DNA of 41,117 nucleotides from a virus. Lineage: Duplodnaviria > Heunggongvirae > Uroviricota > Caudoviricetes. Position numbers and translations under genes: made by a program. The notes under the pieces were generated by a model that worked only from the letters and a program-made list of their open reading frames with translations, searched no databases and was not told the DNA's origin. Shown in pieces: positions 4,150 to 32,670 of the stretch (its first letter is position 1; each line of letters opens with the position of its first letter). The DNA is taken from IMG/VR virus record IMGVR_UViG_2690316285_000010; one strand, given 5' to 3'.

Positions 4150-5127
4150 TTACATTCCTCCCAAGGGATTAAACCTCACCGCATCCTGCAAGTAATCCGG
4201 CGCAAGATGGGAATAAATCATCGTTGTCTGAATCTTTGCGTGCCCCAGAATTTTCTGGAGCGTCAGAATATTGCCGCCGTTCATCATGAAATGACTGGCG
4301 AAGGTGTGGCGCAGCGCATGAACAGCCTGGCCGTCAGGAACATCAGGTGCGACCGTTTTGATGACATCGCGAACCAATGAATAATCCAGCGTCGGAAACA
4401 CCAGTTTCCCGCCCCGTTTTTTGATCTTTTCAAACAGGCTTTCAGAAATAGGAACGGTACGGTTTTTGCTGTTCTTCGTTTTTGAAAAAGTGATTCGACA
4501 ATGAAGAACACGGCGCTGCTCCAGTGCCGCTACCTCGCCCCATCGCGCCCCGGTCGACAGAAGGATTTCGACGGCCAGCCGTTCATCGGGATTTTCAGCC
4601 AGTGCATCCAGCAACTGAACACATTCAGACTTACTCAGATATCCCATTTCACGCTCGTTAACCTTCATTCCTTTAAGGCCTTGAACGGGGTTATCGTTAA
4701 GAAAATGGCCGGATGAGATGAGTGCGGTAAACATCGCGCTTAACGCCCCAATCTCTCGATTTATGGTGCTGGGCTGTATCCCCTGCTCTATCCTGGACAC
4801 ACGTAGCTCGGTGAGCATCGTTGTATTAAGTTTATGCACGCACGGGTCATCCATTGCCTCACTCAAGCGCAGCAATTTAAGGCGCGTGTTATGCCCTGAC
4901 TTCATTAGCTGGCCGTGGTATTTCCACCACAAGTCAATAAGCACTGACAGCGGACGGCGATCAATGGAGTTTCCTTTCCACTCATTGTTATGCTGTTGCG
5001 CCAGCACCCACCGCTCATATAAAACTGCATCCGATTTCGTTTTAAATTTTTTGCGAATGCGTTTGCCTTTACGCCCCTCAGGACGCATGTCAAGAAGATA
5101 CCCTCCCGGAATTGATTTTATGCTCAT
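4150..5127 (-). CDS. int: P2-type tyrosine integrase
   Basis: Strong similarity to P2/186 integrase as remembered, including the C-terminal HxxR...Y catalytic region (HALRHTFASHF ... MIYSHL). Start placed at MSIKS by alignment to P2 Int; the ORF-track start at 5277 is an upstream in-frame extension. Confidence 0.9.
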   Translation of the reverse strand: MSIKSIPGGYLLDMRPEGRKGKRIRKKFKTKSDAVLYERWVLAQQHNNEWKGNSIDRRPLSVLIDLWWKYHGQLMKSGHNTRLKLLRLSEAMDDPCVHKLNTTMLTELRVSRIEQGIQPSTINREIGALSAMFTALISSGHFLNDNPVQGLKGMKVNEREMGYLSKSECVQLLDALAENPDERLAVEILLSTGARWGEVAALEQRRVLHCRITFSKTKNSKNRTVPISESLFEKIKKRGGKLVFPTLDYSLVRDVIKTVAPDVPDGQAVHALRHTFASHFMMNGGNILTLQKILGHAKIQTTMIYSHLAPDYLQDAVRFNPLGGM

Positions 5128-5176
5128 TCGTGAAGCCCCAGCGTTACAAGACCACCATGCCCCCAGCGTTCCATGA

Positions 5177-5488
5177 TTAGCCGGGCTGTGTGCCAGTCTT
5201 GCGGGATTTTTGAGAAGACGATGTGTTTTCTGGCCCATCAGGGGAGAGAGAAGGACTGATCTGCCCAGCAGCCTCATTTGTTTCGTTACTCATCAACCAC
5301 GTAGTGTATTTTTTAAATTCCGGGTGCATTGTGATTTTCAGTAAAACCTCCGTTCCCACACCTCGAATACCAGTCTCGTATTGCTTAACCGTACCAACCG
5401 CAATACCTATTGAATCCGCGAACTTTGCCTGACTAAGCCCCTCAGATTCTCGAATTGCTTTTAGCTTCTTTGATATCTCTATTGACAT
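5177..5488 (-). CDS. P2 C-type immunity repressor (HTH)
   Basis: Small HTH protein (start at MSIEIS) upstream of and co-oriented with int, divergent from the early operon; resembles P2 C in size and layout. Confidence 0.7.
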   Translation of the reverse strand: MSIEISKKLKAIRESEGLSQAKFADSIGIAVGTVKQYETGIRGVGTEVLLKITMHPEFKKYTTWLMSNETNEAAGQISPSLSPDGPENTSSSQKSRKTGTQPG

Positions 5489-5511
5489 GGTGTGCACCTG
5501 AATACTATATT
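5482..5511 (+). promoter_or_regulatory. candidate sigma70 early promoter (Pe-like)
   Basis: TTGACA at 5482-5487, 18-bp spacer, TATATT at 5506-5511, facing the cox-like gene. Flanked by inverted GGTGTG...CCT...TA repeats at 5489-5504 and 5557-5575. Confidence 0.5.
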
Positions 5512-5583
5512 GGTTATCAGTTGAGTACCACTTGACGCTACAAAGAGCCACAAATAGCACCAGATTGAATAGGTTATCACACC

Positions 5584-5862
5584 ATGGCAAAAGTCCTTAA
5601 CACATACGAACAAGCGGATTTTGAGCGTTTGGCGGCGTTCTACCCATACCGTAATGAACATGGGCTACCGGTACTTGAAGAAAGCCTAGAGGATTATGCG
5701 AAACGCACAAATCAAAGCATTCTCGCTGTAAGAAGGCAGGCTGATAGATCGGTAATTCCCGTTACTCAAGAAGGAAGAAACACAAAACGCAAAGTAAATC
5801 TCTTCGCAATTTTCCTGAAAACCATCAGAAACGCAGAGAAATACGTGCAGATGACAAAATAA
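5584..5862 (+). CDS. putative Cox/Apl-like early regulator
   Basis: 92-aa first gene of the rightward early operon, divergent from the repressor; called by position only, sequence does not match P2 Cox as I remember it. Confidence 0.4.
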   Translation: MAKVLNTYEQADFERLAAFYPYRNEHGLPVLEESLEDYAKRTNQSILAVRRQADRSVIPVTQEGRNTKRKVNLFAIFLKTIRNAEKYVQMTK

Positions 5863-5876
5863 CGAGGTGTCATTTT

Positions 5877-6215
5877 ATGCTGAAGCAACGCCGTAATTTT
5901 TGTACCGGAACAGAACGCCACGCTAACCGTTTCACTACCAGTGCATCACGCAGCAACATCCGCTACAGCCTGAGTGATACACACGCAACGCCGGATGGCT
6001 ACCCAGTAAAACAAATCGGCGAGCACGCCTGGCTGATTGAGAAAGCTGGAATCGTGATCCACAAATGCCCACGCAATCCGTTTACCGGAAACCGCATTTT
6101 TGCACTGAGCTGTGGCGACAATCAGTTCGGGCAGGATTTCACATTATACGAAGCACTTCGCACGGTTGATCGTCTGCTTCGCGGGCAAAGTTTTATTAAA
6201 CAGGCTGATTTATAA
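5877..6215 (+). CDS. hypothetical early-region protein
   Basis: ORF track; GAGGTG upstream of ATG; co-oriented in early operon. Confidence 0.5.
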   Translation: MLKQRRNFCTGTERHANRFTTSASRSNIRYSLSDTHATPDGYPVKQIGEHAWLIEKAGIVIHKCPRNPFTGNRIFALSCGDNQFGQDFTLYEALRTVDRLLRGQSFIKQADL

Positions 6216-6225
6216 CAGGTGCTTT

Positions 6226-6513
6226 ATGACCAAAGACAATGCACAAGGTGTATTTATCCGTTTTATTGATTTTCGCGGTGAACTGTTATTACGTGCATCC
6301 GCTATTGACGGAGTGACTCCGGCGGGTAAAAACGGAGCCGACGAAGCCACTTACGTTTATCTGAACGGCACGCGACTGCTTGTGGAACTTCCGTACCAGA
6401 CCGTACGAGAAATCATCAGCGAAGATGAAAAGGCACGCCAGGTTAATGGCGATGAACCCTATATCGAAATTATTTGTATGGATTCAGAAGCTGAAATACA
6501 GAAAGCAGATTAA
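6226..6513 (+). CDS. hypothetical early-region protein
   Basis: Internal ATG at 6226 chosen so the gene does not overlap the previous ORF (ORF track lists 6112-6513). Confidence 0.45.
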   Translation: MTKDNAQGVFIRFIDFRGELLLRASAIDGVTPAGKNGADEATYVYLNGTRLLVELPYQTVREIISEDEKARQVNGDEPYIEIICMDSEAEIQKAD

Positions 6514-6524
6514 AGGGCGTTGTG

Positions 6525-6767
6525 ATGGGCAAAGAATATAAAACTCTCATTAACAAAGCACTTGAGCGTTTTTATTTTCGCTTAAGTGCATCAGGCGCTC
6601 ATGCTGAACGTGCGGCCCGTGACTCATTGACCAGAGCAATCCGAAGTCTGTATGACGTGGCTTTTTACGCTGATGATCTGGATGCACTTAACGAACTTTC
6701 CGAGCTGATCTGTGCCGCAGAATGCGGGGAACATATTGAACCGTATAAGCTGGGAAATATCGCATGA
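6525..6767 (+). CDS. hypothetical early-region protein
   Basis: ORF track (GTG 6522 / ATG 6525). Confidence 0.45.
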   Translation: MGKEYKTLINKALERFYFRLSASGAHAERAARDSLTRAIRSLYDVAFYADDLDALNELSELICAAECGEHIEPYKLGNIA

Positions 6768-6877
6768 GTATATTTATTTCATGGCTTGTTCTGATTATTT
6801 CGGTGGTCTGCGCCATTGGGATTATGCGAATTATTAATTCAGTAAAAAAGATTGAACGCTTTTTCACTGAAGAATAA
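6764..6877 (+). CDS. possible small hydrophobic protein (37 aa)
   Basis: ATG at 6764 overlapping the previous stop; translation MSIFISWLVLIISVVCAIGIMRIINSVKKIERFFTEE is one transmembrane helix. Too short for the ORF track. Confidence 0.3.
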   Translation: MSIFISWLVLIISVVCAIGIMRIINSVKKIERFFTEE

Positions 6878-6963
6878 CCGCGCAAATAAGACCCCAGGTT
6901 AAATAAGAAAATGTGAAAACAATCCGCATTCGCGGAGGTATTCGCACACGCCAAGGAGGCGTA

Positions 6964-7167
6964 ATGGCAATTAAGCATTTTCCTGTCGTTCGTTTCACCT
7001 CCAGAGGACGTGAATACGAAGTTGACGAACGCCTGATTACCACAATCGACAAACACCGTTCAGAAAAGGATGCACATCATATCTATCTCACTGACGGCAC
7101 TTACTTCTGCGCCACCAACGTGGTGCAGGTGAATCTTATCAGACAGGTACAGGAGTCACGCAGATGA
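6964..7167 (+). CDS. hypothetical early-region protein
   Basis: ATG at 6964 preceded by AGGAGG; ORF track lists the longer 6913-7167. Confidence 0.45.
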   Translation: MAIKHFPVVRFTSRGREYEVDERLITTIDKHRSEKDAHHIYLTDGTYFCATNVVQVNLIRQVQESRR

Positions 7168-7409
7168 CCATTCTGGACTACATCGCTGCCAATCCGGGTT
7201 GTAGCAGTGGAGAAATCGCCGCAGCACTGAATACACCAACCACAACCATTAATGCGGAGCTACGCCGTCTCTGGCGCAGCGGTTTAGTCACAAGAAAAGA
7301 GCGCAAAACAGGCGGTCGCTTTTCTTATCAGGTAAACCTGATGCCGTTTGGGTGTAGCAACCCACTAACCCAGATGTTCAACCAGCTACTGAGGGAAATC
7401 AGAGCATGA
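7164..7409 (+). CDS. putative winged-helix DNA-binding protein
   Basis: 81-aa ORF; central segment (SSGEIAAALNTPTTTINAELRRLWRSGLV) looks like an HTH. Start overlaps the previous stop. Confidence 0.4.
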   Translation: MTILDYIAANPGCSSGEIAAALNTPTTTINAELRRLWRSGLVTRKERKTGGRFSYQVNLMPFGCSNPLTQMFNQLLREIRA

Positions 7410-7550
7410 GCACCTCCAACTGCCGGAAACCACGTCGGGCTTCAGCAGCTCATCCGGCAGCAAAACAAACTCCATTAATTCCTGTTCCGGGCCTTTCCTG
7501 CACCTTGCGGCGGGAGGCCTTCGCACATCTGTAACAAGAGGATTGCCGCA

Positions 7551-7916
7551 ATGATTCTCGCCAACGACTTTCTTGAATACCTGCTCAACACAGAGCGTGA
7601 TCTTGCCGCTCGCGTGCGTGATCGTTATGACATGTACCTGAAATCCCTGCCTGTACCGCAGCTCGCTGACGGAAAGATTGTTATTGATGGTCGCTACATG
7701 ATTGACAGCCACGAGGGAAATTACAGGCTTTACCGCATTGAAGGTGGCACCCCGTCCGTTATTGGCATTTACCAGCGCCCATCCTCTGCAATCGTCGATG
7801 TGATTGCCGACAGCATCCGCATCACACATCGCCATGCCGACACAGAAGACACCGTGCTGGAAATTCAGCGGCTGGCTACAGTCTGCCGCGACACCCTGAA
7901 TGGCATGACGAAGTAA
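7551..7916 (+). CDS. hypothetical protein preceding replication gene A
   Basis: ORF track; position is that of the small ORFs upstream of A in P2-like phages. Confidence 0.45.
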   Translation: MILANDFLEYLLNTERDLAARVRDRYDMYLKSLPVPQLADGKIVIDGRYMIDSHEGNYRLYRIEGGTPSVIGIYQRPSSAIVDVIADSIRITHRHADTEDTVLEIQRLATVCRDTLNGMTK

Positions 7917-7922
7917 ATCACT

Positions 7923-10745
7923 ATGACGGCAGAGTACATCAGGGACTGGCAACAACCGCGCCACGCAGTGGGGCGTGAAGGAACGGGGATCCCCGCTCCT
8001 GAATCCGCGCTTTCCTCCTGGCTGGATGCCCACCGGGCAGAGAACGAGCGCCGCCAGGAAATGGCTGATGCGGCGTTCTCCGCCACGCCACTGGGCAACC
8101 TGATTAATAAAAGCCTGGACGCACAGGAAAAACAGGACAAAACCATCACACTGGCAGGAGACGCCAGAAAACAGGCACGCGGCGCGGTGGATGAAGCCAT
8201 GGCCTCGCTGCGCCTGCTGCCGTCCTATCTGCGCGATCCGCTTATTCGCCACCTCTCCTTCCTGCGCAAAAAACAGGAAGCCGATCGCCGGAAAGGCAAA
8301 AAGAGCTGGCAGGCGGAACGCTATGCACGCGGAACCCTGCGCAAAATATTCGAACGTCTGGATCGCACTGACGGACACTGGCTGACACCGGGTTATCGCT
8401 CCCTTGCCGGACGTGAACGCCTGGACGATTTGCTTTACCTGCCGCAACTCAACAAACACCAGATACAGACGCTGGCCACCATGACGGCGGCGATGTTCAG
8501 CAGCACCTTCGAAAAACTCTGCGATGGTTTTGGCGCGACTGATGGCGAGCTGACCATGGATGTAACGCTGAAGGCGTATCAGATGCTGGCCCGCATGGCG
8601 TTACACTTACACGCCATGCCTCCGCATTATGACGCACTGACAACAGACAAAGACCGGAGGCACGAACCGGACACAGAACTGCTGCCGGGCGCAATCCTTC
8701 GCCTGACCTGTGCGGAATGGTGGAAACGCAAACTGTGGCTGTTACGTTGCGAGTGGAGAGAAGAACAACTTCGCGCCGCCTGTCTGGTTTCCAGAAAAAC
8801 ATCGCCCTATCTGAGCCAGGACGCGTTAAGCGAGTTTCGCGCACAGCGCGAGAAAACACGCGATTTCCTGAAAAGTTTCATGCTGGAAAATGAAGACGGG
8901 TTCACGATTGATCTCGAGACGGTGTATTACGCGGGAGTAAGTAACCCGGTTCACCGTAAGGCAGAAATGATGGCCACCATGAAGGGGCTGGAACTTCTGG
9001 CCGAAGCCCGTGGCGACAAAGCGGTGTTTCTGACTGTCACCTGCCCGTCAAAATACCACGCCACAACGGAGAACGGTCATCCGAATCCCAAATGGAACGG
9101 GGCCACAATGCGCGACTCCAGCGATTACCTGGTTAACACGTTTTTTGCGACGGTCCGCAAAAAACTGAACCGCGACGGCCTGCGCTGGTATGGCATCCGC
9201 ACGGCGGAGCCTCACCATGACGGCACCGTGCACTGGCATATGATGGTCTTTGCTCATCCGGAAGAAATCGACACCATTGTGTCCCACACCCGCGATATTG
9301 CCATTCAGGAAGATCGTCACGAGCTGGGCGATGACATAACTCCGCGCTTTAAGGCGGAGTATGTAGACGGCTCAAAAGGCACGCCAACCAGCTACATCGC
9401 CACCTACATCGGGAAAAACCTGGACAGCCGCGCCGTGGATGGCATCGACCCGAAAACGGGCAAGCCACGCGTTGACCACGAAACCGGAAAATCAATGGCC
9501 GAGAGCGTGGAACGCGCCATCGGCTGGGCGCGCCTTCACCGGGTCCGCCAGTTCCAGTTCTTTGGCATCCCCTCCCGCCAGGTATGGCGTGAACTGCGCC
9601 GCCTTGCCAGCCAGATGGCACGCAACCCGGAAGGCCCGCAACGGCTGAAGGATGACGCAATGGATGCGGTTCTTGCCGCCGCTGATGCCGGATGTTTTGC
9701 CACCTACATAGAGAAACAGGGCGGCGTACTTGTTCCACGCAAAGACTACCTGATTCGCACCGCCTACGACCTCGCCGATGAGCTGAACGATTACGGCGAA
9801 CAGAGCGTACAGATTTACGGGATCTGGTCACCACTCATCGGGGAATCCTCCCGTGTGTGCACGCATCCGGATAACTGGAAGCTGGTAAGACGCAAACCGG
9901 AAGCGGAAGACAGCGCCCGCGAAAATGGTTTTGACCTTCAGGGCGGCCCTGCCGCCCCTTGGACTCGTGGCAATAACTGTCCCCGTGTACAGGAAACGGA
10001 CAACAACGGGACAGAACAGCCGGAAGAACGGCCAGCACCGTGGCCGCAGCTCCCTGACGGCGTTGATGTGGATGAATGGATGCGCTCACTGAAACGGCAC
10101 GAACGCCGGGCGCTGATGCGTTCGCTTCGTGACAAACAGGCAAAAAACAGCAGTGATGAAATGCAGAGCTGGACACAGAGCCGCAAACAGCAGCGGCCTT
10201 TGCCTGATAACCACGAATTACTCGCTAAAGAATGGCGGGAGTCTGCTGAATCTCTCGGCCTGCATATCGGTGAACAACAGATGCAGCACCTGTTACGGGG
10301 CGGCAGTCTGTACGTTGACGGCAGCATCATTGCACCGCAGGGATTTGAAATTGTACGCAAACCGGATACCCGCCCGGACAGCCGAATCACGCAGCTCTGG
10401 CAGCGCCTGAGCCGTAATCATGGCGTAAGCAGCACGGAGATCCGCCATAACCCGGTCGCCAGCTATCTGACACAGCTGGGGGCATCAGACCCTGAAGCCG
10501 CCGCACGCCTGGCATCCACACTTCAGCAGGACCAGAACACCATGAAAACACCCGTTACCGTGCTTTCTGACATGCTGCGCGCCATCCGCGACGCAGAGCA
10601 CGCACAGAGAATCAGTGAAACCACTGAACGCGCCCGCCGCAAAGCAGACCTGCTGCGGGGTGGCCTGACCAGTGGAAACAAAAAACAGACAGAAACGGGA
10701 CTCACGAATCCCGTAAATGAGCAAAAAACGCGCAGCGATATATGA
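7923..10745 (+). CDS. A: P2 gpA-like rolling-circle replication initiator (940 aa)
   Basis: HUH-type motif (HWHMMVFAH) and catalytic Tyr region (TPTSYIATYIGKN) typical of P2 A; about 180 residues longer than P2 A as I remember it (761 aa). Confidence 0.8.
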   Translation: MTAEYIRDWQQPRHAVGREGTGIPAPESALSSWLDAHRAENERRQEMADAAFSATPLGNLINKSLDAQEKQDKTITLAGDARKQARGAVDEAMASLRLLPSYLRDPLIRHLSFLRKKQEADRRKGKKSWQAERYARGTLRKIFERLDRTDGHWLTPGYRSLAGRERLDDLLYLPQLNKHQIQTLATMTAAMFSSTFEKLCDGFGATDGELTMDVTLKAYQMLARMALHLHAMPPHYDALTTDKDRRHEPDTELLPGAILRLTCAEWWKRKLWLLRCEWREEQLRAACLVSRKTSPYLSQDALSEFRAQREKTRDFLKSFMLENEDGFTIDLETVYYAGVSNPVHRKAEMMATMKGLELLAEARGDKAVFLTVTCPSKYHATTENGHPNPKWNGATMRDSSDYLVNTFFATVRKKLNRDGLRWYGIRTAEPHHDGTVHWHMMVFAHPEEIDTIVSHTRDIAIQEDRHELGDDITPRFKAEYVDGSKGTPTSYIATYIGKNLDSRAVDGIDPKTGKPRVDHETGKSMAESVERAIGWARLHRVRQFQFFGIPSRQVWRELRRLASQMARNPEGPQRLKDDAMDAVLAAADAGCFATYIEKQGGVLVPRKDYLIRTAYDLADELNDYGEQSVQIYGIWSPLIGESSRVCTHPDNWKLVRRKPEAEDSARENGFDLQGGPAAPWTRGNNCPRVQETDNNGTEQPEERPAPWPQLPDGVDVDEWMRSLKRHERRALMRSLRDKQAKNSSDEMQSWTQSRKQQRPLPDNHELLAKEWRESAESLGLHIGEQQMQHLLRGGSLYVDGSIIAPQGFEIVRKPDTRPDSRITQLWQRLSRNHGVSSTEIRHNPVASYLTQLGASDPEAAARLASTLQQDQNTMKTPVTVLSDMLRAIRDAEHAQRISETTERARRKADLLRGGLTSGNKKQTETGLTNPVNEQKTRSDI

Positions 10746-10790
10746 AGCGCGCACAAAACAGGCAAAAACGGGATTTCAGAATCCCGTAAA
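10693..10790. promoter_or_regulatory. two 25-bp palindromic sites upstream of parM-like gene (candidate parC/operator)
   Basis: AAACGGGActcacgaaTCCCGTAAA at 10693-10717 (inside the 3' end of A) and AAACGGGAtttcagaaTCCCGTAAA at 10766-10790, 73 bp apart; second is 32 bp upstream of the parM-like start. Confidence 0.45.
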
Positions 10791-10821
10791 CGATTAATTA
10801 ATCAACATAAGGAAAAGCGAC

Positions 10822-11781
10822 ATGAAAATTTGTATCGACGACGGCTCCACCAACATCAAGCTGGCATGGACTGAGAACGGCGAACGCCGCAACGCCATCA
10901 GCCCGAACAGCTTCAAGTCGGAATGGTCTGCGCCGTTCGGTGGCATGCAGCCCGCGAACTACATGCTTGATGGCGTGCGCTATGGTTTTGATCCGGTCAG
11001 CGATCGCTTTGTCCAGACAACCGACACGCAATACCAGTACAGCGATGTAAATGTCATTGCCATTCATCACGCGCTGGTCAAATCAGGCATCACGCCACAG
11101 GAGGTGGATGTGGTTGTCACCCTGCCACTGAGCGAGTATTTCGACACAAACGCACAGCCGGACATGGCCAACATCAACCGCAAAAAAGCGAACGTTATGC
11201 GCCCGGTGGAGTACCAGAACGGCGAAGCATTCACTATCCGTAACGTGCGGGTTATGCCTGAATCCATTCCGGCTGGCTTTAAGGCACTGGCTGACATGAG
11301 TCCGTTTGAATCCCTGCTGATTGTGGATTTGGGCGGAACCACGCTGGATGTGGCAAAGGTTCAGGGGCAACTGGCAGGTATCAGCCAGGTGTTTTGCGAT
11401 CCACACGTAGGCGTTTCTCTGATGGCCGATGCCGTACTGTCGGTGATGGCCACTAACGGTATGCGCACCAGTCACCACATCGCCAATACCATTATCGAAC
11501 ATCGCCATGATGAAGCCTGGCTGCGCCAGCACATCCACAATGACGCGCATTACGCCAGCCTGATGGCGGTTATTCGTGAAAAGGAAGAAACACTGAAACA
11601 ACGCGTGATCCGCGCGCTGGCGGGTTTTTCGGGTTACGGGCGGGTGATGGTTGTCGGTGGAGGGGCGGAGATTGTGGCACCCGCTATCCGCGAAGCCTGC
11701 GGAGTTAATGCGACTTTCATCGCGGACGGGGTGCCACAGTTTGCTCTGGTTAATGGGCTGTACGCAATGGACAAGGAGTAA
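10822..11781 (+). CDS. ParM/StbA-like actin-family partition ATPase
   Basis: N-terminus MKICIDDGSTNIKLAW and internal IVDLGGTTLDV, VMVVGGGAE motifs closely follow plasmid R1 ParM (MLVFIDDGSTNIKLQW ...) as remembered; similarity runs full length. Confidence 0.8.
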   Translation: MKICIDDGSTNIKLAWTENGERRNAISPNSFKSEWSAPFGGMQPANYMLDGVRYGFDPVSDRFVQTTDTQYQYSDVNVIAIHHALVKSGITPQEVDVVVTLPLSEYFDTNAQPDMANINRKKANVMRPVEYQNGEAFTIRNVRVMPESIPAGFKALADMSPFESLLIVDLGGTTLDVAKVQGQLAGISQVFCDPHVGVSLMADAVLSVMATNGMRTSHHIANTIIEHRHDEAWLRQHIHNDAHYASLMAVIREKEETLKQRVIRALAGFSGYGRVMVVGGGAEIVAPAIREACGVNATFIADGVPQFALVNGLYAMDKE

Positions 11782-11785
11782 ACCA

Positions 11786-12097
11786 ATGACGACACCAACC
11801 AGACGGATAAGTTTCTATCTGAAGCCTGCGGCCGTCAAGAACGAAAGCGAAGCATGCGCCTGGCTGGGCAGCCTTACACCAGAAGCCCGCAAAAGCGGCC
11901 AACGCGTGGCTTTTCTGGCCGGGCTGGCACTTCTGAAAATGAATCCAGCAGAGGCTTACCGACTGGCTGCATGGGCTGACGATGAGGCGTTATCGGTGAC
12001 ACAAACCAGGACAGAACGCCCCGTGCCACAGCCAGTACCAACCGCACAGATAACCAGTCAGATAGCAGGGAATATCCGGGCATTATTTCCTGAATGA
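11786..12097 (+). CDS. ParR-like partition adaptor/repressor
   Basis: ATG 4 nt after the parM-like stop; N-terminal region (ISFYLKPAAV ... AFLAGLALL ... IRALFP) resembles R1 ParR. ORF-track form 11651-12097 would overlap parM and is rejected. Confidence 0.6.
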   Translation: MTTPTRRISFYLKPAAVKNESEACAWLGSLTPEARKSGQRVAFLAGLALLKMNPAEAYRLAAWADDEALSVTQTRTERPVPQPVPTAQITSQIAGNIRALFPE

Positions 12098-12157
12098 CGA
12101 ATTTGACGGCTTTTAATTTTATCGGGGTGCACTGTCGCCCCGCACGAGGAAAACACG

Positions 12158-12682
12158 ATGAAAAAATACGAATACATGCTAATGAAAGAAGCACTGCGGG
12201 CTGGTCTGGCTCCCTGTCCTGTATCCGTAGAAGCTGTTGTTGGGAACACGATTTTCCGAACGCTGCGAAATCGCGTATCCGTGAAGATGGTTCACCAACC
12301 ACCCAAATCTACCAGCATGATCTATCTGCCGCTGCCCGAGGCTATCAAACTTATGCGTTCGCTGAAATTTGCGATTTGGATGCAGACACAAATCAACAAA
12401 GCGGTGCAAAACACCTTCGTTAAGAGACTAATACCGGAGCTTGCTGCCAGATGTGCAAAATGTACCAGACCCGCACTTCAATTTGATCTGTCATTGATTC
12501 AACAAGCTACGGAGGCAGAACTGTACCGCCTGTCACCTATCCGTGATGCTCACACGGAAGCATCAGAAATGTTCCGGCTCATGTTTCAATTTAATTTTGC
12601 CGTTCGACGCACACGCGTTCAGGTCAATCGCATGATGCAGGAGCAGGAAGAGTTAACACAGTACAAAGGGGGCAGCCAGTGA
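12158..12682 (+). CDS. hypothetical protein (174 aa), cargo between A and cos
   Basis: ORF track; GAGGA RBS; no motif recognised. Confidence 0.5.
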   Translation: MKKYEYMLMKEALRAGLAPCPVSVEAVVGNTIFRTLRNRVSVKMVHQPPKSTSMIYLPLPEAIKLMRSLKFAIWMQTQINKAVQNTFVKRLIPELAARCAKCTRPALQFDLSLIQQATEAELYRLSPIRDAHTEASEMFRLMFQFNFAVRRTRVQVNRMMQEQEELTQYKGGSQ

Positions 12683-12918
12683 GTAATTCAGCACGACTAC
12701 AGCTTGGTTTTTCACCGCTATCAAAAACCATCGTATTGGCAAAAATGCGTGACTTAGGAGACGGAACAAAACGCCGCGTAGGAAATGATCGCGGTCGCGA
12801 TGTAACCAACGAGGCCGCTCAACTCGTTTGGCATCTAGTCATGGCAGAAGGCGGTGAAATTAATTGGGAGCTGGATGATGGTTCTCGTATGATTTTGAGG
12901 GCCGAGAAGAGTAAATAG
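12679..12918 (+). CDS. hypothetical protein (79 aa)
   Basis: ORF track; start overlaps the previous stop, suggesting translational coupling. Confidence 0.45.
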   Translation: MSNSARLQLGFSPLSKTIVLAKMRDLGDGTKRRVGNDRGRDVTNEAAQLVWHLVMAEGGEINWELDDGSRMILRAEKSK

Positions 12919-12932
12919 CTCAAGGGGGATTA

Positions 12933-13118
12933 ATGCTAAATGATGATGAAGAAGAGCTGCTTATGCAGGAATGGTCGCTCGGTGATTATGATAATGGTGA
13001 AAATGGGTGCCCGCATTGTGGCCGTTATCGTTTATGTATCTGCCAGAATGGAAAACACAGATGTGAAAAGTGCAATTGGTCTCCGGAACTTAATGACTAC
13101 GTGCCGATCGAGTGGTAG
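12933..13118 (+). CDS. hypothetical Cys-rich small protein (61 aa)
   Basis: ORF track; CPHCG...CxC...CEKC cysteines suggest a zinc-binding fold. Does not resemble Ogr. Confidence 0.4.
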   Translation: MLNDDEEELLMQEWSLGDYDNGENGCPHCGRYRLCICQNGKHRCEKCNWSPELNDYVPIEW

Positions 13119-13139
13119 AGGTAAGTCACACTAGGTGTT

Positions 13140-13600
13140 TTTTAGTTGATTTTATAAATGCACAATAGTGCACAAATTTGCACAATTTTTTTGAACGACT
13201 TTTTGCCCTTCCGGCCCGCGTGGCGGCTGGATCCGTCAAGGATCCGTGCATGCACAAAAAAACGCGTTTTTTCTGCGCGCAGGTGACGGGGGAACAGCCC
13301 GCGTTTCAGGGGGTAAATAGCATTCCCTGAACGATGTCGCAGAGATACAACAGAATGGCTGTATTTCTCACGCTGAGCGTGAAAAAGACGTGAGGGCTTT
13401 TGATTTGATGGGGTGAAAGGTAAGGCCGTCAAAATCGCACTGAGACGGCGAGAATATGCAGTCAACGAGGTGGGATTGCGTAAGAGTCTGACTGTCGATG
13501 ATGGCAATCAGCAGGAAAGCGTCGTGAAATTATCTGACTGATACAGGAGCTGGAGAGTCGGGGCATAAATTTTTTATGCCCCGGCGAAGCAGCAGACAAG
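13140..13600. other. non-coding region at the expected position of cos and the packaging site
   Basis: 460 bp without ORFs just beyond the portal gene stop, where cos lies in P2. Contains phased TGCACAA repeats and a GCGTGGCGG stretch at about 13217-13226 that partly resembles the P2/186 cohesive end. Confidence 0.4.
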
Positions 13601-13609
13601 CGAAGCGCG

Positions 13610-14656
13610 TCAGGATGTGGGCTGGGTGTCTAACAGTGCGTAAGGGTTAAAGCGGATCACCTCTTCGCCAAGCCAGTCATTGATGTGCTTCATGGCCTCC
13701 ATGACGGGCATCAGCTCGTTAATTGCGTAAACCCGCGCGGCCTTCTCCACATCACCAAACGCACTTTTTTCGCCCGGCATCGCCCCCATCAGTTGCGGCG
13801 GAACGCGGTGCGCAGCCAGCACATCATCACGGGATGCCGCCTTAACATTCATGAACTCATCCTTTGCGGTGATCTGCTGGAACGGCAAAATTTGCACCCC
13901 CTCTTTGCCCCCGTTGGGCGCATGAATGAGCACGTTTTTAAACGCACCACCACCACGTGCCCCCTGTAGCGTTTCTTTCAGGGAGTCCATGCTTTCGCGG
14001 TTTACCTGCGCTGCACCGATGTAGATGATGCACCCGGCGTGGGATCCGTTGTCGTAGTACAGTTTTCTGAACATGTCCGCCGAATGAGAAAGGCTGGCCG
14101 AGAGTAATGCGCCAAGATATTCCGGCATGCCGTAGATTTCCTGGTTAATATCCGGATTCATCAGGTGGCACACTTTGCCAGGACGAAACTGAAACGCATC
14201 CTTGCCATCCTGCACATACCACCATGATTCAAGATCGCTTCCGCGTCGCATGTATTTCGCCAGGGCGTGCCGTAATTTAAGCGGTTCGCCGAGCATATTG
14301 CTCCGAAGCTCAAGGAATGCGTTACCGAACACAAACCAGTCCAGCGCCAGCGCCGAGAAATCCTGCCGGGAAAGCAGCGGGTGCGGAATATAGCAGCCGA
14401 GCAATACATTGCGCTTAAAGTAAAGCGCAGACTGATGCCAGGACGTTTGCCGGGCAGCTCTTGCCAGACCGTACCAGTCCACCGGGGTTTCATACCACCG
14501 CCCGTTATCAGCACAGTACATATTGTCCAGCAGGTCATGCCCGGTCAGGCGGTAAGGACCATCAAATGTGAATGCACTGAGCGACGATTCTTTCCTGAGC
14601 GCATCAGCGAGATCAATGCGTGAACTCATGCGCACTTTTTTATTTTTTCTGCTCAT
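13610..14656 (-). CDS. Q: portal protein (P2 gpQ-like)
   Basis: 348-aa ORF in the P2 Q position (leftward, next to cos, followed by P); size and sequence consistent with P2 Q. Confidence 0.85.
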   Translation of the reverse strand: MSRKNKKVRMSSRIDLADALRKESSLSAFTFDGPYRLTGHDLLDNMYCADNGRWYETPVDWYGLARAARQTSWHQSALYFKRNVLLGCYIPHPLLSRQDFSALALDWFVFGNAFLELRSNMLGEPLKLRHALAKYMRRGSDLESWWYVQDGKDAFQFRPGKVCHLMNPDINQEIYGMPEYLGALLSASLSHSADMFRKLYYDNGSHAGCIIYIGAAQVNRESMDSLKETLQGARGGGAFKNVLIHAPNGGKEGVQILPFQQITAKDEFMNVKAASRDDVLAAHRVPPQLMGAMPGEKSAFGDVEKAARVYAINELMPVMEAMKHINDWLGEEVIRFNPYALLDTQPTS

Positions 14657-16470
14657 CAGAACTCCATAACCGTGAAACGCTCGTTTTCTCCTTCGCCGCC
14701 AATCGGTTCGTTAATGACAGCAAGCATGGTTGCCCACGCAAGGTCGCCGTGGCTGATCCCCCTCGCGCGGTCCGTTTCGTAAGTGATAAAACCGCCCGGT
14801 GTTTTCACCTTACGCACGGCGTTAAAGGCCGCAACCAGCTCGCGTTCGGCGCGATCGTATTCCCACCGCCCGGCACGCATTATTTGCAGCATTTTCAGTA
14901 CCAGCGACCGTTTTGATGACAGCGTGAAGGTGTAAGGGATGGCGGCGGGAAAAAACCGTTTCACTATCTGATAGACGGCATCCCCGTGCCCGCCCGTCGC
15001 ATCAATGCCGATGTGTTCCACGTTGTAGCGATACGTGAACTCTTCAATAACTCTGGCCTGCTCTTCAAATTCCAGCCCCTGAACGCGTCGCGTCTCCACC
15101 GTTCTGAAACGACCACCAGGAACAGCCGGAGGAACCACCACGGACACAGCGCCGCTGTCGCCGTTACCACTGCTGCCGTTTGCGTCATACCCAATCCATA
15201 CCGGACGATTCCCCATCGGGCGGGGGGCAAAGGGTTTCCAGTCTTTCCAGTCGTCGTATCCGTCAACACCGCAGCCAATCAGGATATTCAGGTTAAATGC
15301 CGATTCCCCTTCGCGGACAAACTCACACATATAGAGATTGCGGAACTCGTCTTCGGTGTTTTCATCACGAATTTCATCAATATCGGTGTGTTTCCAGCCG
15401 TGATTAACCACATCTTCCAGCGTGACAATTTGCCGCCACGTCCGGTCAGGGCAGATAAGCCCGTTATGCAGCGTTTTCCAGTCCACAGAAAAACGCTGGC
15501 GTTTATGCGCGGCCTTTTTCTCGTTCCAGCGGTCGCCGTTCCAGTAGGCGTATGCCTCGTGCGTTTCGGTGGATGGCGTGGAGAAGCAGGTGCGCCGCAG
15601 TCCGCTGAGGGTTGCCATAGCGCCAGCCACCTTGCGCAGTTCAGCAAAGCGACTGACCCAGAAAAATTCATCAAAATAAAAATTGCCCGTGTAAGATTGC
15701 GCCGTCGCAGCAGAAGTGCCGAGAAAATGCATCTCTGCGCCGTTGGAGAGGATGATTTTATCGCCCCCTTTCAGCTCCACATCGACTTCAGCCGCGGCCT
15801 TCTGAATAATGCTTTTAAACTGGAACGCCTGACGACGCGACGCAGACAAAAAAATCTGGTTACGCTGGTAAGGTTGTGCCACATCGTCACGCAGCGCCAT
15901 CAGCAGTGCTTCCTGTGCAAAATACCAGGTCGCCCCAATCTGTCGGGATTTCAGGATCATCCTGTTACGTATCCCGGCTTCNNNNNNNNNNNNNNNNNNN
16001 NCCGGCTTCCCTGCAAAGCGTCAGGGAGTCAAACCAGCCCCGCTGATGCCACTCCAGCCTGCTGATGATTTTTTCCCGCAGTGCGGCAATCTGTTCCGGC
16101 GTGAAATGATTTTTGAGTTTTTTCGCCCGGCCTTTCTTTCCTGTGGCCGTCGCATCCGGCTGGCCATCATGCAGTTTTTTAAGCTGCCGGGNNNNNNNNN
16201 NNNNNNNNNNNNNNNNNGCTGCCGGGTCAGCAGGTCTATTTCCTTAAAGTCACCACCTGTTTTATTCTGTTTTTCAGTAAGCTGGATGAGGCGCGCATCG
16301 ATGGACTGCGTGACACGCTGCACGGGTGGCGTTTCATCCCACTGGTCGCGTTTTTTCCACGCATAAATCGTGTTCGGGTTTATTCCCATCAGACGTGATA
16401 TTTCTGCGGGCGGATAACCCTGCCAGTAAAGTTGCCGCGCACGCTGGCGCACAAAAGCGTCCTGAATCAT
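14656..16470 (-). CDS. P: terminase large subunit (P2 gpP-like), interrupted by two N-runs
   Basis: ORF 14656-15960 matches the nuclease half of P2 P, ORF 16021-16470 the N-terminus. N-runs 15982-16001 and 16192-16217 are flanked by duplicated 9-bp sequences; removing the duplication restores frame (RQ / RQLKKLHDGQPDATAT). Confidence 0.8.
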
Positions 16471-16624
16471 TGCTCCCCCTGAGTAATTACAGGAAGATTA
16501 CCCGCGCGCGAAACCGTTCTCCTTAACCCCCTGTTCTGGCCGTTTTCTTACAACAAAAGCCCTTTGTATCAGCCTGTTACGCTTTGCCATCATGACTGAA
16601 GAACCAGTCAGAGGGGCAAAAACT

Positions 16625-17461
16625 ATGGCTAATGAAAAAAAGACATCCCGCAAAAAGTTTCGCGTGGCTGTCTCCGGATCAACTGTTGATGGCCGTGAAA
16701 TCAGTCCGGTGCATCTGCGTGAAGCCGCCGAGAACTTCAACCCGGATGTTTACGCTGCCCGCGTGAACGTTGAGCACTATCTCTCGCCATGCCCGTCAAG
16801 CGAATTTTCCGCAATGGGCGATGTCACCGCACTGAGTACGGAAGACATTACGGAAGGTCCGCTGGCCGGACGTACTGCGCTGTATGCAGAAATCGAACCG
16901 ACCGAGCGCATGAAGCAGCTTGTCGCGGACGGCAAGAAAATCTATTCCAGTATCGAACTGCACCCGCAGTTCTCCGTTAACGGGCGCGCCTATCTGGTCG
17001 GGCTGGCGATGACCGACACCCCGGCAAGCCTGGGCACTGAGCGCCTGAAATTCACGGCACAGCAACGTCAGGCGGTGATGACGTTCAACAGTATCCAGGG
17101 TGAAGCACCGCTTATCTCCGAAGCCATCGAGTCTGAAATCATCGAAATGGCAGAACAACGCCAGGAAGAAGGCACCCAGTGGTTTAACCGCGTAATGGGG
17201 ATTATTGGTCGTGGCCGCAAAGCGGATGACGCCAGTTTCTCCCGTATTCAGGAAGCGGTGGAAAGCGTCGCAACGTCACAGGCCGACATTATCGACCGTT
17301 TTAATGCGCTGGAAACACGCCATCAGCAGGACAGCCAGAAAATCACTTTACTGACCACGGAGCTGACAGCACTGAAGGAAAAACTGCGCACGCAGGACGG
17401 CGATCCGCAGAACCGGTTCACCGCAACGGGCGCAGCCTCCGACCAGCTGGCTGACTTCTGA
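16625..17461 (+). CDS. O: capsid scaffolding protein (P2 gpO-like)
   Basis: Start at MANEKK aligns with the P2 O N-terminus; divergent from P as in P2. Confidence 0.85.
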   Translation: MANEKKTSRKKFRVAVSGSTVDGREISPVHLREAAENFNPDVYAARVNVEHYLSPCPSSEFSAMGDVTALSTEDITEGPLAGRTALYAEIEPTERMKQLVADGKKIYSSIELHPQFSVNGRAYLVGLAMTDTPASLGTERLKFTAQQRQAVMTFNSIQGEAPLISEAIESEIIEMAEQRQEEGTQWFNRVMGIIGRGRKADDASFSRIQEAVESVATSQADIIDRFNALETRHQQDSQKITLLTTELTALKEKLRTQDGDPQNRFTATGAASDQLADF

Positions 17462-17484
17462 TAAGACAAAGGAGCAAATTTTTT

Positions 17485-18537
17485 ATGAATCTGGTGATGT
17501 CAGATATTACCCGCAACAAGCTGGGTTGCTATATGGCGCAGCAGGCGTCGCTTAACAATATCCCGGTTTCTGCACTGGTATCGCGATTTACCGTGGAACC
17601 TGCGGTGCAGCAACGTTTTGAAAACGCCTCAAAGGATAGCACCGAACTTACAAAAAAAATTAACGTGATCGGCGTGACCGACCAGAAAGGCGAAAAAATC
17701 CTCCTGGACACCACAGGACCGATTGCACGCACAAATACCAGTTATGACGGAACAAAACGCCGTAACCCGAATAACGTGGTTGATCTGAAAAACCGCAAAT
17801 ACCAGTGCGAACAGGTGAACTACGACACGTTTATTTCGTATCCGCAGCTTGATGCCTGGTCGGCACACAGCGATTTTCAGTCCCGCATCAGCGCACAGAT
17901 TGCCCGACAGGTGGCACTTGACCGCATCATGATCGGTTTCAACGGCACATCTCACGCGGATGAGTCCAACTTCAGCACCAACAAGCTGCTTCAGGACGTT
18001 AACGTGGGGTGGCTGGAGCACATCAGAACCAATGCCAGCGAGCGCGTAATGAATGACGTGACGCTGACTTCCCGCAACATGGACAACACCGTGGCGCACG
18101 CGGGTAAATACGCGAACCCTGATGCACTGGTACAGGACGCGCGCTCATCTCTGCTGGATGAATGGCACAAGGAAGCTGACGACCTCGTGGTGATTATGGG
18201 GCGCAACCTGTTTAACTCGCTGCGTCTGCCAGTGCTGAACAGCATCAGCGGCCAGAATCCCAATGCGGAATTACTTGCCGGGCAGCTCATCCTGTCATCG
18301 CGCACCATTGGCGGGCTGGGTGTGTTCCTTGCACCGTTCTTCCCGGATGCAACGATGCTGATCACCTCATTCAACAACCTGTCGATTTACTGGCAGAAAG
18401 GTTCAATGCGTCGTCTGATGAAAGACGAACCGGAATACAACCGCATCGCCACCTACCAGTCCATCAATGACGCTTATGTCGTTGAAGACTATGGCAAGTG
18501 CGCGATGGTCACTGGCCTGAAGTTCGCCGACAGCTAA
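17485..18537 (+). CDS. N: major capsid protein (P2 gpN-like)
   Basis: 350-aa ORF with AAGGAG RBS; similar to P2 N over its length (e.g. FTVEP, YVVEDY). Confidence 0.88.
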   Translation: MNLVMSDITRNKLGCYMAQQASLNNIPVSALVSRFTVEPAVQQRFENASKDSTELTKKINVIGVTDQKGEKILLDTTGPIARTNTSYDGTKRRNPNNVVDLKNRKYQCEQVNYDTFISYPQLDAWSAHSDFQSRISAQIARQVALDRIMIGFNGTSHADESNFSTNKLLQDVNVGWLEHIRTNASERVMNDVTLTSRNMDNTVAHAGKYANPDALVQDARSSLLDEWHKEADDLVVIMGRNLFNSLRLPVLNSISGQNPNAELLAGQLILSSRTIGGLGVFLAPFFPDATMLITSFNNLSIYWQKGSMRRLMKDEPEYNRIATYQSINDAYVVEDYGKCAMVTGLKFADS

Positions 18538-18582
18538 TCAACTCACGGCGGGCATCATGCCCGCCTGTAACGGAGAGAAAAA

Positions 18583-19383
18583 ATGATTACTCCTGCACAG
18601 CAACACTGGCAGAACGTGATGGCACAGCGCGCAGGCCGGGCGAATGAAGGTGTGGACCACGCCGCGCGTACCGCGCATGAAGAGGTGCTGTATCGTCTGC
18701 GTCTGGCACAGGCCCGGCTTAAGGGCGTACAGGCCAGAAGCGCGAAAGCCGACATCAAAAAAGCGTTGTTGCCGGACTTTTCCGGCTGGATTGAGGGAAC
18801 GCTGGAGGCTGACGGCGGGCAACAGGACGAAGTGATTGCCACGCTGATGGTGTGGGCGATTGACTGCGGCGATCTTCCGCTTGCGCTGCGTATTGGTGCG
18901 TATGCGGTCCGTCACAACCTCATCATGCCGGATAACTTTGGCCGTACTGCTGCCACAGTGCTGACCGAAGAAATCTGCAATCCGGTACTGACGCAGGCCG
19001 GGACGGATGCCGACGCGGATTTGTCCGTCTTTATCGAACCACTGGACACACTTTGGGAAATTGTCGCCAACCAGGATATGCCGGACGAAGTGCGCGCCAA
19101 ATTATGCAAGGCGTGCGCCTTTGCCCGCCGTGGCCTGAGCGATGCGGACAGCATGGCCTCATCACTGAAGCTGCTGCGCGAAGCGATGCATCTGAACCAG
19201 AACGCAGGTGTGAAACGCGAGATTGCAACCCTTTCCCGCGCCCTGAAAAAAGCCGATTCCGCAGCCGCACCAGAAGACGCCAGCGCACAGCAGGCGCAGG
19301 ACGAAAGCAGCGAAAGTAAAAAGACAACGCGGAAGCCTGCAACACGAAAAACCACCGCGACGCAGAAGGCGAAGCGCGGTTAA
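18583..19383 (+). CDS. M: terminase small subunit (P2 gpM-like)
   Basis: MITPAQQHW vs P2 MTSPAQRHM; conserved DMPDEVRAKL motif. Confidence 0.85.
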   Translation: MITPAQQHWQNVMAQRAGRANEGVDHAARTAHEEVLYRLRLAQARLKGVQARSAKADIKKALLPDFSGWIEGTLEADGGQQDEVIATLMVWAIDCGDLPLALRIGAYAVRHNLIMPDNFGRTAATVLTEEICNPVLTQAGTDADADLSVFIEPLDTLWEIVANQDMPDEVRAKLCKACAFARRGLSDADSMASSLKLLREAMHLNQNAGVKREIATLSRALKKADSAAAPEDASAQQAQDESSESKKTTRKPATRKTTATQKAKRG

Positions 19384-32561: not shown

Positions 32562-32670
32562 ACGGTAAACAAGGCTGGTAACGCCGTGCAAAAAAATGGC
32601 GATACGTTGTCCGGTGGACTTACTTTTGAAAACGACTCAATCCTTGCCTGGATTCGAAANNNNNNNNNNN

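Follow-up and report, generated by a model that had tools for sequence, protein, structure and literature searches.

The three small genes between the partition genes and cos of this prophage are, as judged from sequence comparison, separate mobile cassettes and not a co-inherited module. The window (the whole stretch of DNA analysed, 41,117 nucleotides) holds a P2-family, P88-like (Xuanwuvirus) prophage that carries ParMR, and the three genes lie within 12158-13118 on the plus strand, in a slot running from 12096 to 13159 between parMR and cos. It is somewhat probable, in our judgement, that the cargo of this slot consists of independently shuffled early accessory cassettes, transcribed with A and parMR and serving the phage, and not of a three-component defence system. 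The locus as it stands is ordinary uncharacterised cargo of a well-described hotspot.

The features of the region are listed in Table 1. The preliminary description had placed ORFs of 174, 79 and 61 aa, the last of them Cys-rich, at 12158-13118 between the partition genes and cos, tightly packed with overlapping start and stop. These points stand: the coordinates were confirmed, six cysteines are present in ORF3, parMR lies upstream and cos and the portal gene downstream. ORF1-ORF3 take up 951 of the 961 nucleotides from 12158 to 13118 on a single strand, with spacings of 60 nt between parR and ORF1, −4 nt between ORF1 and ORF2 (the GTGA overlap) and 14 nt between ORF2 and ORF3.

Table 1. Features in and around the slot between parMR and cos (positions in the window).
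Feature	Position	Strand	Remarks
gpA	7923-10745		upstream of parM; PF05840
parM	10822-11781	+	PF06406/PF21523
parR/stbB	11786-12097	+	PF10784; parMR is the conserved left flank of the slot
ORF1 leader	12094-12157	+	ATGA start overlaps the parR stop
ORF1	12158-12682	+	174 aa, ATG start, pI 10.0; GAGGA 8 nt upstream
Linker AAAGGGGGCAGCCAGTGAG	12665-12683	+	ORF1 tail, ORF2 SD and GTGA overlap
ORF2	12679-12918	+	79 aa, GTG start, pI 9.4; overlaps the ORF1 stop as GTGA
ORF3	12933-13118	+	61 aa, six Cys, pI 4.4; AAGGGGGA upstream
TGCACAA triple repeat	13159-13192	+	right edge of the slot
Putative cos core GGTGACGGGGGAACAGCCC	13281-13299	unassigned	block invariant across lineages
Portal gene (gpQ)	13610-14656	-	conserved right flank; annotated as portal in homologous loci

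The slot belongs to the gpA-gpQ hotspot by its position, with the replication gene A on one side, the portal gene Q on the other and cos adjacent, and the same layout recurs in the homologous loci examined. This cos-proximal slot is a known diversity hotspot of P2-like phages with anti-phage cargo (PMC9122126, Rousset et al. 2022), also treated in a 2026 preprint by Moura de Sousa et al.; its earlier identification as the position of P2 tin and old, a common site of anti-phage cargo, agrees with that work. In the same study, parMR is present in the hotspot of about one quarter of P2-like phages, and an ORF1 homologue, WP_000759755, appears as 'hypothetical' in Table S5 (PMC9122126). Both edges of the slot, 12096 and 13159, are shared by about 1,570 E. 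coli genomes that differ in what lies between these edges; the match to these genomes and to P88-like phages ends at 12095-12097, and none of the roughly 1,570 flank-sharing genomes has the full content. The flanks are thus conserved and the contents variable. The usual contents are Ead/Ea22-like genes, zf-C4_ClpX, SSB, DUF4760 and toxin-antitoxin (TA) pairs. Among P2 proteins without known function, 15-32% are predicted to be antiviral, and six of eight P4 loci without known function were protective.

ORF1-ORF3 are genuine genes, beyond chance ORFs, because all three are under purifying selection (dN/dS against homologues) and belong to protein families. SD sites precede all of them, and scanning the region detected neither Rfam families nor tRNA genes. 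The prophage contains IS4- and IS110-family insertions, and the hotspot is rich in remnants, such as a 38-aa stub of ORF1 in one locus (L040). Both would fit decaying passengers, functionless today, which recombination has left in a disrupted prophage. This is very unlikely given the intact reading frames with good SD sites, the selection across divergent homologues and the invariant Cys ligands of ORF3.

The history of the locus is recorded at its junctions. The linker between ORF1 and ORF2 contains the codons for the end of ORF1 (...KGGSQ*), the SD of ORF2 and the GTGA in which stop and start overlap. A crossover maps to 12658-12683, the part to its left being EA2-like and the part to its right FDAARGOS_943-like; in FDAARGOS_943, ORF2-ORF3 are preceded by zf-ClpX and a 75-aa gene. 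The ORF1/ORF2 linker also stands between unrelated genes elsewhere, in lambdoid as well as P2-like prophages, and in 120 IMG/VR loci it connects at least 5 upstream families with at least 11 downstream families. Each of the three genes is far commoner without the other two. ORF2-ORF3 follow ORF1 in 4 of the 31 loci that bear the ORF1 leader (3 of 26 IMG/VR contigs and one Shigella sonnei draft), the next gene being Ead/Ea22-like in most loci.

Tight packing of overlapping or near-abutting genes, the hotspot location and the identical trio in the Shigella sonnei draft and three IMG/VR contigs would be expected if all three genes formed one uncharacterised exclusion or defence module, much as the preliminary description had suggested in proposing a single exclusion or counter-defence module. 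The prophages with the trio are, however, 99.98-100% identical, so that these recurrences do not amount to independent conservation, and the trio is present in none of 5,426 complete E. coli genomes. The recombination joint falls exactly between ORF1 and ORF2, the genes keep separate partners, and ORF2 also occurs in virulent phages. The search for known defence systems advised at that stage, run with PADLOC, was negative for ORF1-ORF3, which do not resemble 3HP either. Genes with separate histories and separate insertion hardly resemble a single anti-phage system of three parts; we disfavour the single module and regard it as extremely unlikely.

The earlier statement that none of the genes matches a recognised family holds for ORF1 and fails for the other two, ORF2 being a member of DUF7446 and PHROG 1578 and ORF3 of PHROG 24897. 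For ORF1, scans of Pfam, PHROG, NCBIfam and PADLOC gave no match, including scans of all family members at E ≤ 10, and no PDB sequence matched. Its relatives form 8 clusters in a search of 5.8 billion proteins, and an exhaustive profile HMM search of 1.84 billion representatives gave 3 cluster representatives. In all 32 loci examined it is confined to the gpA-gpQ slot of P2-like phages, and among these loci it appears to be an orphan of this slot. An N-terminal helix and small sheet, followed by four long helices, are predicted; the AF2 model has a pLDDT of 50, which is low confidence. The dN/dS against homologues is 0.22-0.33. In some loci a TA pair stands in place of ORF1.

The leader of the ORF1 cassette, about 65 nt long, carries TTTGACGGCTTTTAATTTTATCGGGG and the hairpin GGGGTG-CACTGT-CGCCCC. 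It is 82-99% identical across loci in which the ORF1 coding sequence is 55-80% identical and the upstream gene is a different one. An exact 26-mer from the leader occurs in 26 IMG/VR contigs, each time ahead of ORF1 or an ORF1 remnant, and a scan of genome contigs contained none. The fold of the leader is not more stable than that of shuffled sequences, and a consensus scan, which cannot exclude a promoter, gave no sigma-70 match. A promoter, a LexA box, a sigma-54 site and a stable RNA were each considered for the leader, and the searches gave no support for any of them.

Such strong conservation of the leader suggests gene-specific regulation, which lies outside the early-accessory model. 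ORF1 alone could be a new superinfection-exclusion or abortive-infection determinant, controlled through its leader, with ORF2 and ORF3 as unrelated passengers. Its restriction to a defence-enriched hotspot, where a TA pair may replace it, its orphan status with somewhat relaxed constraint, and a leader far more conserved than the coding sequence all point in this direction. Relaxed constraint is common among conflict genes. On the other side, ORF1 is negative in PADLOC, shows no features of a nuclease, an ATPase, a transmembrane protein or a toxin, lacks a recognisable sigma-70 promoter in its leader and is co-oriented with, and packed close to, the early operon, so that we consider this role for ORF1 unlikely. 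A more specific version, in which ORF1 and its leader are a hitherto unrecognised determinant of exclusion or abortive infection, a single gene under tight regulation that is restricted to the ParMR-type P2-like hotspot, and the leader is a new cis-regulatory switch that holds the gene silent until infection, is less likely still; the switch might act, for example, by translational coupling via the overlapping upstream ORF. A defence role, mainly for ORF1, is possible.

ORF2 belongs to Pfam DUF7446 (PF24233; E 1e-16, 61 bits against a cutoff of 24.1), the match spanning its residues 7-77 and profile positions 2-67 of 70. No PDB sequence match was found. Its relatives form 372 clusters in Enterobacterales, and its dN/dS against homologues is 0.08-0.12. 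DUF7446 genes are common in the recT-xis accessory region of lambdoid prophages, one ORF2 homologue lying within the recT-ead/Ea22-xis region of such a prophage. The family is also present in virulent Nonanavirus phages, such as Bas82, which argues for a phage-serving and against a host-protecting role. DUF7446 proteins of 131-138 aa were considered as fusions and turned out to be upstream-extended gene calls.

ORF3 (PHROG 24897, E 2.6e-46; relatives in 36 clusters) combines an acidic N-terminus with a C4 zinc ribbon (CPHCG...CIC...CEKC). In its family C29, C35, C44 and C47 are invariant, C26 (at least 90% of 29 sequences) and C37 nearly so, and the two CxxC knuckles conserved in the family identify it as a zinc ribbon. 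Alignment to L37Ae and TFIIB ribbons in a PDB sequence search was weak and sub-threshold (E 0.14-0.5), Pfam Zn_ribbon_IS1595 scored 17.1 bits, below its cutoff of 25.4, so that ORF3 is not a member of that family, and zf-dskA_traR (PF01258) gave no match at E ≤ 1, which sets it apart from the DksA/TraR family. The acidic N-terminus with C4 finger nevertheless recalls DksA/TraR-type C4 RNA polymerase binders such as lambda Orf73, which we take to be an analogy only. The dN/dS is about 0.10 against the single close homologue; the other homologues share 62-77% amino acid identity, with dS saturated. In P2-like prophages of Salmonella the ORF3 cassette occurs by itself ahead of cos, at the same position, with 95% nucleotide identity and diverged flanks, and other homologues are found in the early operons of unrelated phages, in many differing contexts.

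Two other assignments of ORF3 were discarded. A role as a cos or packaging factor might have been suspected, as no gene separates ORF3 from cos in two P2-like lineages and a small terminase gene follows it in a further locus (L007); this was rejected because other homologues lie in early operons, after integrase or beside exonuclease. On reading the sequence, an HNH nuclease was rejected, the core being too short and lacking His-Asn-His spacing.

ORF2 and/or ORF3 may be counter-defence proteins, made early to bind and block a component of host immunity or restriction. Both are small, without enzymatic domains, strongly conserved (dN/dS about 0.1) and widely spread among unrelated phages, both temperate and virulent, in whose early regions they lie, and ORF3 is acidic. 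Known anti-defence genes are, however, scarce in P2-like phages (28 of 1,511), and Bas82 has a DUF7446 gene yet is markedly sensitive to restriction-modification and Old. We rate a counter-defence role as rather improbable.

Beyond ORF3, the right edge of the slot at 13159-13192 has three TGCACAA repeats with 10-nt spacing, which form a short hairpin followed by T7. The block is conserved in all four lineages aligned, with a terminator-like match at 13168-13183, and phage 186 has a similar TGCA-rich triplet close to cos. It could be a terminator of the rightward transcript, part of the cos recognition region, or both. Further right, the putative cos core shares 13 of 19 positions with what we take to be the P2 cohesive end, by hand comparison.

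In the early-accessory model, ORF1 would be an orphan of the P2-like slot, ORF2 would come from the lambdoid recT/exo-xis pool and ORF3 would be a promiscuous zinc-ribbon protein. In this model homologous recombination, acting where short junctions are conserved, produced their present combination, and the widely shared ORF1/ORF2 linker also supplies a ribosome-binding site and the overlap. The genes would lie at the end of the rightward transcription unit of A and parMR; their translation would be coupled, and the transcript would stop at the conserved hairpin-T7 just before cos. Co-transcription is suggested because they share the strand of A and parMR, the gaps are short and no promoter-like or plus-strand terminator-like site was found from parR to ORF2 in a consensus scan, which cannot exclude a promoter. 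The products may be small binding proteins without enzymatic activity, produced early in the lytic cycle and acting for the phage, with roles in host takeover, in tuning lysis and lysogeny or in neutralising host functions. According to published abstracts, the lambdoid exo-xis genes are transcribed before all others and influence the choice between lysis and lysogeny.

Several observations count against the early-accessory model. The slot is enriched in anti-phage systems, and uncharacterised genes there often prove defensive. Co-orientation is no proof of co-transcription: tum and orf97 of phage 186 are co-oriented and have their own promoter. parMR probably has an autoregulated promoter of its own, which could express the cargo in lysogens. 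No ORF is homologous to lambda exo-xis proteins, and the two structure models made are both of low confidence.

A phenotype for any of the three genes, if found, would give the first function for DUF7446, for PHROG 24897 or for the ORF1 orphan, DUF7446 alone being spread over hundreds of lineages of enterobacterial phages and prophages. Small lambdoid-type early cassettes also enter the P2-like 'defence hotspot' through a shared junction, which offers a concrete mechanism for the shuffling of cargo between P2-like and lambdoid phages. It also advises caution: not every uncharacterised gene of the slot is a defence candidate.

Compared with known systems, no known defence system was recognised, PADLOC-DB v2 giving no match at E ≤ 1 for ORF1-ORF3, ParM or ParR, and the three ORFs have no NCBIfam match, no fold match and no enzymatic Pfam domain. 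Other hotspot cargo has the same place beside cos, conserved flanks, fast exchange of contents and ParMR-bearing variants, but here the genes are of the lambdoid 'ea' type, of 60-174 aa, and not nucleases, ATPases or retrons, without a known defence domain or matching PADLOC model. P2 old and tin, exclusion genes of lysogenic conversion, occupy the same slot; they encode 586 and 253 aa, run against the early operon and have a mapped transcript start of their own near cos, whereas ORF1-ORF3 are co-oriented with the early operon and closely packed. A consensus scan, which cannot exclude a promoter, found no promoter-like site for ORF1-ORF3. Tin has no BLASTP match to ORF1-ORF3 at E ≤ 1, and Old is set apart by its ATPase/nuclease domain, absent from all three (Pfam), and by the negative PADLOC result. 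P2 orf91 (DUF3850/ASCH) is closer in layout, being small, co-oriented and abutting A at the tail of the early operon, but it is not homologous. Rst_3HP, three hypothetical proteins from the P2 hotspot that protect against P1 (pFR109; 333, 359 and 227 aa), gave no BLASTP match at E ≤ 1, and ORF1-ORF3 do not belong to it.

The SOS operon of phage 186 (p95-tum-orf97) resembles the present locus in having co-oriented small genes between A and cos and a terminator just before cos. Plasmid-borne expression of its orf97 prevents infection by 186, and tum and orf97 have a LexA-controlled promoter of their own in the A-cos slot. Here the ORF1 leader contains no LexA box (CTG-N10-CAG), no promoter match was found upstream of ORF1, and hhalign gave a probability below 1% for each of Tum and Orf97 against the ORFs, so that they are not members of that operon. 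ORF1 was also considered as a Tum-like antirepressor, an Orf97-like protein, a relative of Tin, Orf91 or 3HP and a lambda exo-xis protein, and showed no similarity to any of these. The lambdoid exo-xis or 'ea' genes (ea22, ea8.5, orf60a, orf61, orf63, orf73) offer a further comparison. Ea22, Ea8.5, Orf60a, Orf61 and Orf63 are not recognisably homologous to the three ORFs (BLASTP E > 1, hhalign at most 1.4%), and the exo-xis region of the loci examined contained no homologue of ORF1 or ORF3. ORF2 homologues, by contrast, are located exactly there, an Ead/Ea22-like gene is the usual neighbour of ORF1, and the same inter-cassette linker is used, so that ORF2 by location and the ORF1/ORF2 linker by sequence agree with this region. 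The 'ea' genes and ORF1-ORF3 are, moreover, all small and non-essential-looking, and ORF1-ORF3 are predicted to be early as well.

Three small genes, ORF1 to ORF3, lie between the partition genes and cos, and their positions, sizes, overlapping packing and the cysteine-rich nature of the last product agree exactly with the preliminary description. They are real genes. In pairwise comparisons with homologous loci, ORF1 has a dN/dS of 0.22-0.33, with amino acid identities as low as 46%, and ORF2 one of 0.08-0.12. The value for ORF3 is about 0.10 with its single close homologue; with the remaining homologues synonymous sites are saturated while amino acid identity is still 62-77%. It is very improbable that the three are non-functional remnants.

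The suggestion that none of the products belongs to a recognised family stands for ORF1 but not for the other two. Family searches of Pfam, PHROG, NCBIfam and PADLOC gave no match for ORF1; its homologues form eight clusters among 5.8 billion proteins, and only three representatives came out of 1.84 billion searched exhaustively by profile. ORF2 belongs, over its full length, to Pfam DUF7446 and also to PHROG 1578, both of unassigned function, and ORF3 belongs to PHROG 24897, likewise without assigned function. Across the 36 clusters of the ORF3 family, W14, L16-G17, Y19 and four ligands (C29, C35, C44 and C47) do not vary, and C26 and C37 hardly do. The cysteine pattern is that of a classical zinc ribbon, in agreement with weak, sub-threshold matches to the L37Ae and TFIIB ribbons.

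The window carries a P2-family prophage, a P88-like Xuanwuvirus by DNA similarity; its 97% identity to P88 is confined to the flanks of the slot. A Shigella sonnei draft contig with the same three ORFs matches positions 6158-18745 at 99.98% identity. Transposase genes lie within the tail-gene region (IS4 family) and past the tail genes (IS110 family); the prophage is probably disrupted by IS elements, fitting a Shigella-like host. There are also 13 runs of masked or unresolved bases (15982-16001, 16192-16217, 31136-31361, 34833-35184, 38362-38583 and others), some of them intragenic: they split the terminase gene, and one 1,115-aa ORF is an apparent fusion of tape measure with gpU.

Features of the prophage around the three ORFs and of its insertion elements
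Feature	Position	Strand	Remarks
Integrase gene	4150-5277	-	
HTH repressor gene	5177-5590	-	
gpA gene	7923-10745		last gene of rightward early operon; PF05840
ParM gene	10822-11781		
ParR/StbB gene	11786-12097		
ORF1 leader	12094-12157		about 60-65 nt
ORF1	12158-12682	+	174 aa; pI 10.0; Shine-Dalgarno present
ORF1/ORF2 joint	12665-12683		AAAGGGGGCAGCCAGTGAG
ORF2	12679-12918	+	79 aa; pI 9.4; GTG start within GTGA overlap; Shine-Dalgarno present
ORF3	12933-13118	+	61 aa; pI 4.4; six Cys; Shine-Dalgarno present
cos region			490 nt, non-coding, after the three ORFs
TGCACAA repeats	13159-13192		three copies, 10-nt spacing, then T7
Invariant block	13281-13299		GGTGACGGGGGAACAGCCC
Palindrome	13559-13583		CGGGGCATAAA-TTT-TTTATGCCCCG; perfect, 11 bp
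Portal gene	13610-14656	-	followed by terminase gene and late genes
IS4-family transposase gene	26440-27786	-	
IS110-family transposase gene, Rfam IS009 RNA adjoining	32637-33308; 33430-33633	-; -	

Similarity to other P88-like prophages ends at the ParR stop codon (12095-12097) and returns at about 13159, just left of the TGCACAA repeats and T7 run. The flanks are common to about 1,570 of 5,426 complete E. coli genomes, none of which carries this cargo. The slot is otherwise occupied mainly by small genes (Ead/Ea22-like, ClpX-type C4 zinc-finger, SSB, DUF4760 and assorted hypotheticals), along with YafO- or Doc-type toxin-antitoxin pairs. The preliminary description had rightly placed the genes in the A-to-cos cargo slot of P2-like phages, which is the published gpA-gpQ hotspot (Rousset et al., PMC9122126), where about a quarter of P2-like phages have a partition system. 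A 2026 preprint confirms the hotspot and, by machine learning, estimates 15-32% of unknown P2 proteins to be antiviral-looking. The kind of locus is already known; its genes are new and uncharacterised.

The interpretation of these genes as one exclusion or counter-defence module was not borne out: they are three cassettes with three histories, and a single three-gene module is extremely improbable. ORF1 and its leader of about 60 nt share 98% identity with their counterpart in E. coli EA2, in which the next gene is Ead/Ea22-like. To the right of 12658 the best agreement, 99.7-100%, is with E. coli FDAARGOS_943, in which a zf-C4_ClpX gene and a 75-aa gene precede ORF2-ORF3; this places a crossover within 12658-12683. 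Among 26 IMG/VR contigs with the ORF1 leader, three, 100% identical, have the present trio, the majority of the rest have ORF1 with an Ea22-like gene, and four keep a 38-aa ORF1 stub beside an antisense Doc-like toxin-antitoxin pair. In P88-like phages of this latter type (L040, 2565-3412; also L041, L044 and L048), antisense genes of 135 and 118 aa, which look like a Doc-type pair, stand in for most of ORF1, with the leader and the stub retained.

The joint between ORF1 and ORF2 follows a canonical linker, AAAGGAGGCAA(C/A)CAGTGAG, which encodes the ...KGGNQ* tail of the upstream gene, provides a Shine-Dalgarno sequence and contains the GTG start of the downstream gene. It connects ORF1, the 75-aa gene or DUF2737 to DUF7446 or Ead/Ea22, in P2-like and lambdoid prophages alike, and among the 120 IMG/VR loci listed it brings together unrelated families, at least five upstream and at least 11 downstream, in at least 16 combinations (loci with the linker include L001, L002, L003, L010, L012 and L052-L130). 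This content, and the many families joined, suggest that the linker both couples translation and gives microhomology for cassette exchange, which would explain the arrival of lambdoid-type accessory genes in a P2-like hotspot.

Salmonella P2-like prophages without ParMR and with another gpA carry an ORF3 cassette that is 95% identical at the nucleotide level; in them too it comes last before cos, and the surrounding DNA has diverged. Remoter homologues occur at the heads of early operons, after an integrase, near an exonuclease and before a small terminase gene. ORF2 homologues are widespread across phage types: between recT and ead/Ea22, upstream of xis/int, in a lambdoid prophage; on phage-plasmids; and, as DUF7446 genes amid runs of small early genes, in virulent Nonanavirus phages including Bas82 (L022, 3007-3252) and Klebsiella SopranoGao. 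Because both occur in early regions of many phages, virulent ones included, a role serving the phage during infection is favoured for their products; that either or both act in counter-defence is doubtful.

All ORF1 homologues located, even the remotest at 46% identity, sit in the gpA-portal slot of P2-like phages. The leader is 82-99% identical across loci in which ORF1 coding DNA is 55-80% identical (dS 0.65-1.9) and upstream genes differ. It opens with an ATGA over the upstream stop codon, which could start a coupled upstream ORF, and contains an (A/T)TGACG direct repeat and a 5-6 bp GC hairpin that has decayed in the remotest locus. It folds no better than shuffled sequence, and searches for an Rfam family, a second copy, a LexA box or a sigma-70 match were negative. 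The leader resembles an ORF1-specific cis-regulatory element. Both this leader and the confinement to the hotspot speak for ORF1 as a single-gene defence or exclusion determinant, a possibility we consider unlikely, if somewhat less so than counter-defence by its neighbours. Overall, we lean modestly towards a mosaic of independent, phage-serving accessory genes.

The three ORFs lie on the strand of A and parMR with gaps of 60, -4 and 14 nt. Consensus scans found no promoter upstream of ORF1; the first plus-strand terminator site, a weak one, is within ORF2, followed by the conserved hairpin-T7 at 13168-13192. Strand, gaps and promoter scan suggest that ORF1-3 would be expressed with A and parMR. 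P2 old and tin, in contrast, run antisense from a mapped start of their own; P2 orf91 is co-oriented and abuts A. In phage 186, tum/orf97 are co-oriented too, but a separate LexA-controlled promoter drives them and a terminator immediately ahead of cos ends them. Since P2 and 186 point opposite ways, orientation alone is not decisive.

P2-like prophages of both E. coli and Salmonella keep the TGCACAA repeats, which resemble TGCA-rich triplets near cos of phage 186 and in cos-proximal DNA of P4 and P2; they are probably part of cos recognition and/or a terminator of the rightward transcript. The invariant block is likely the cos cleavage site; compared by hand, it agrees with the 19-nt P2 cohesive end at 13 of 19 positions. 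The palindrome, immediately past the stop codon of the portal gene, could terminate the leftward Q-P transcript.

The products of ORF1-3 have no enzymatic, membrane or toxin-like features; structure prediction gave no usable models, and fold searches returned noise. None of them resembles Tin, Orf91, 3HP, Tum, Orf97 or the lambda exo-xis proteins; with Old the comparison is by domain content, and none contains an ATPase or nuclease domain. The characterised lambdoid exo-xis genes are expressed early and modulate the lysis-lysogeny decision; they are the nearest functional analogy for ORF1-3, an analogy without homology.
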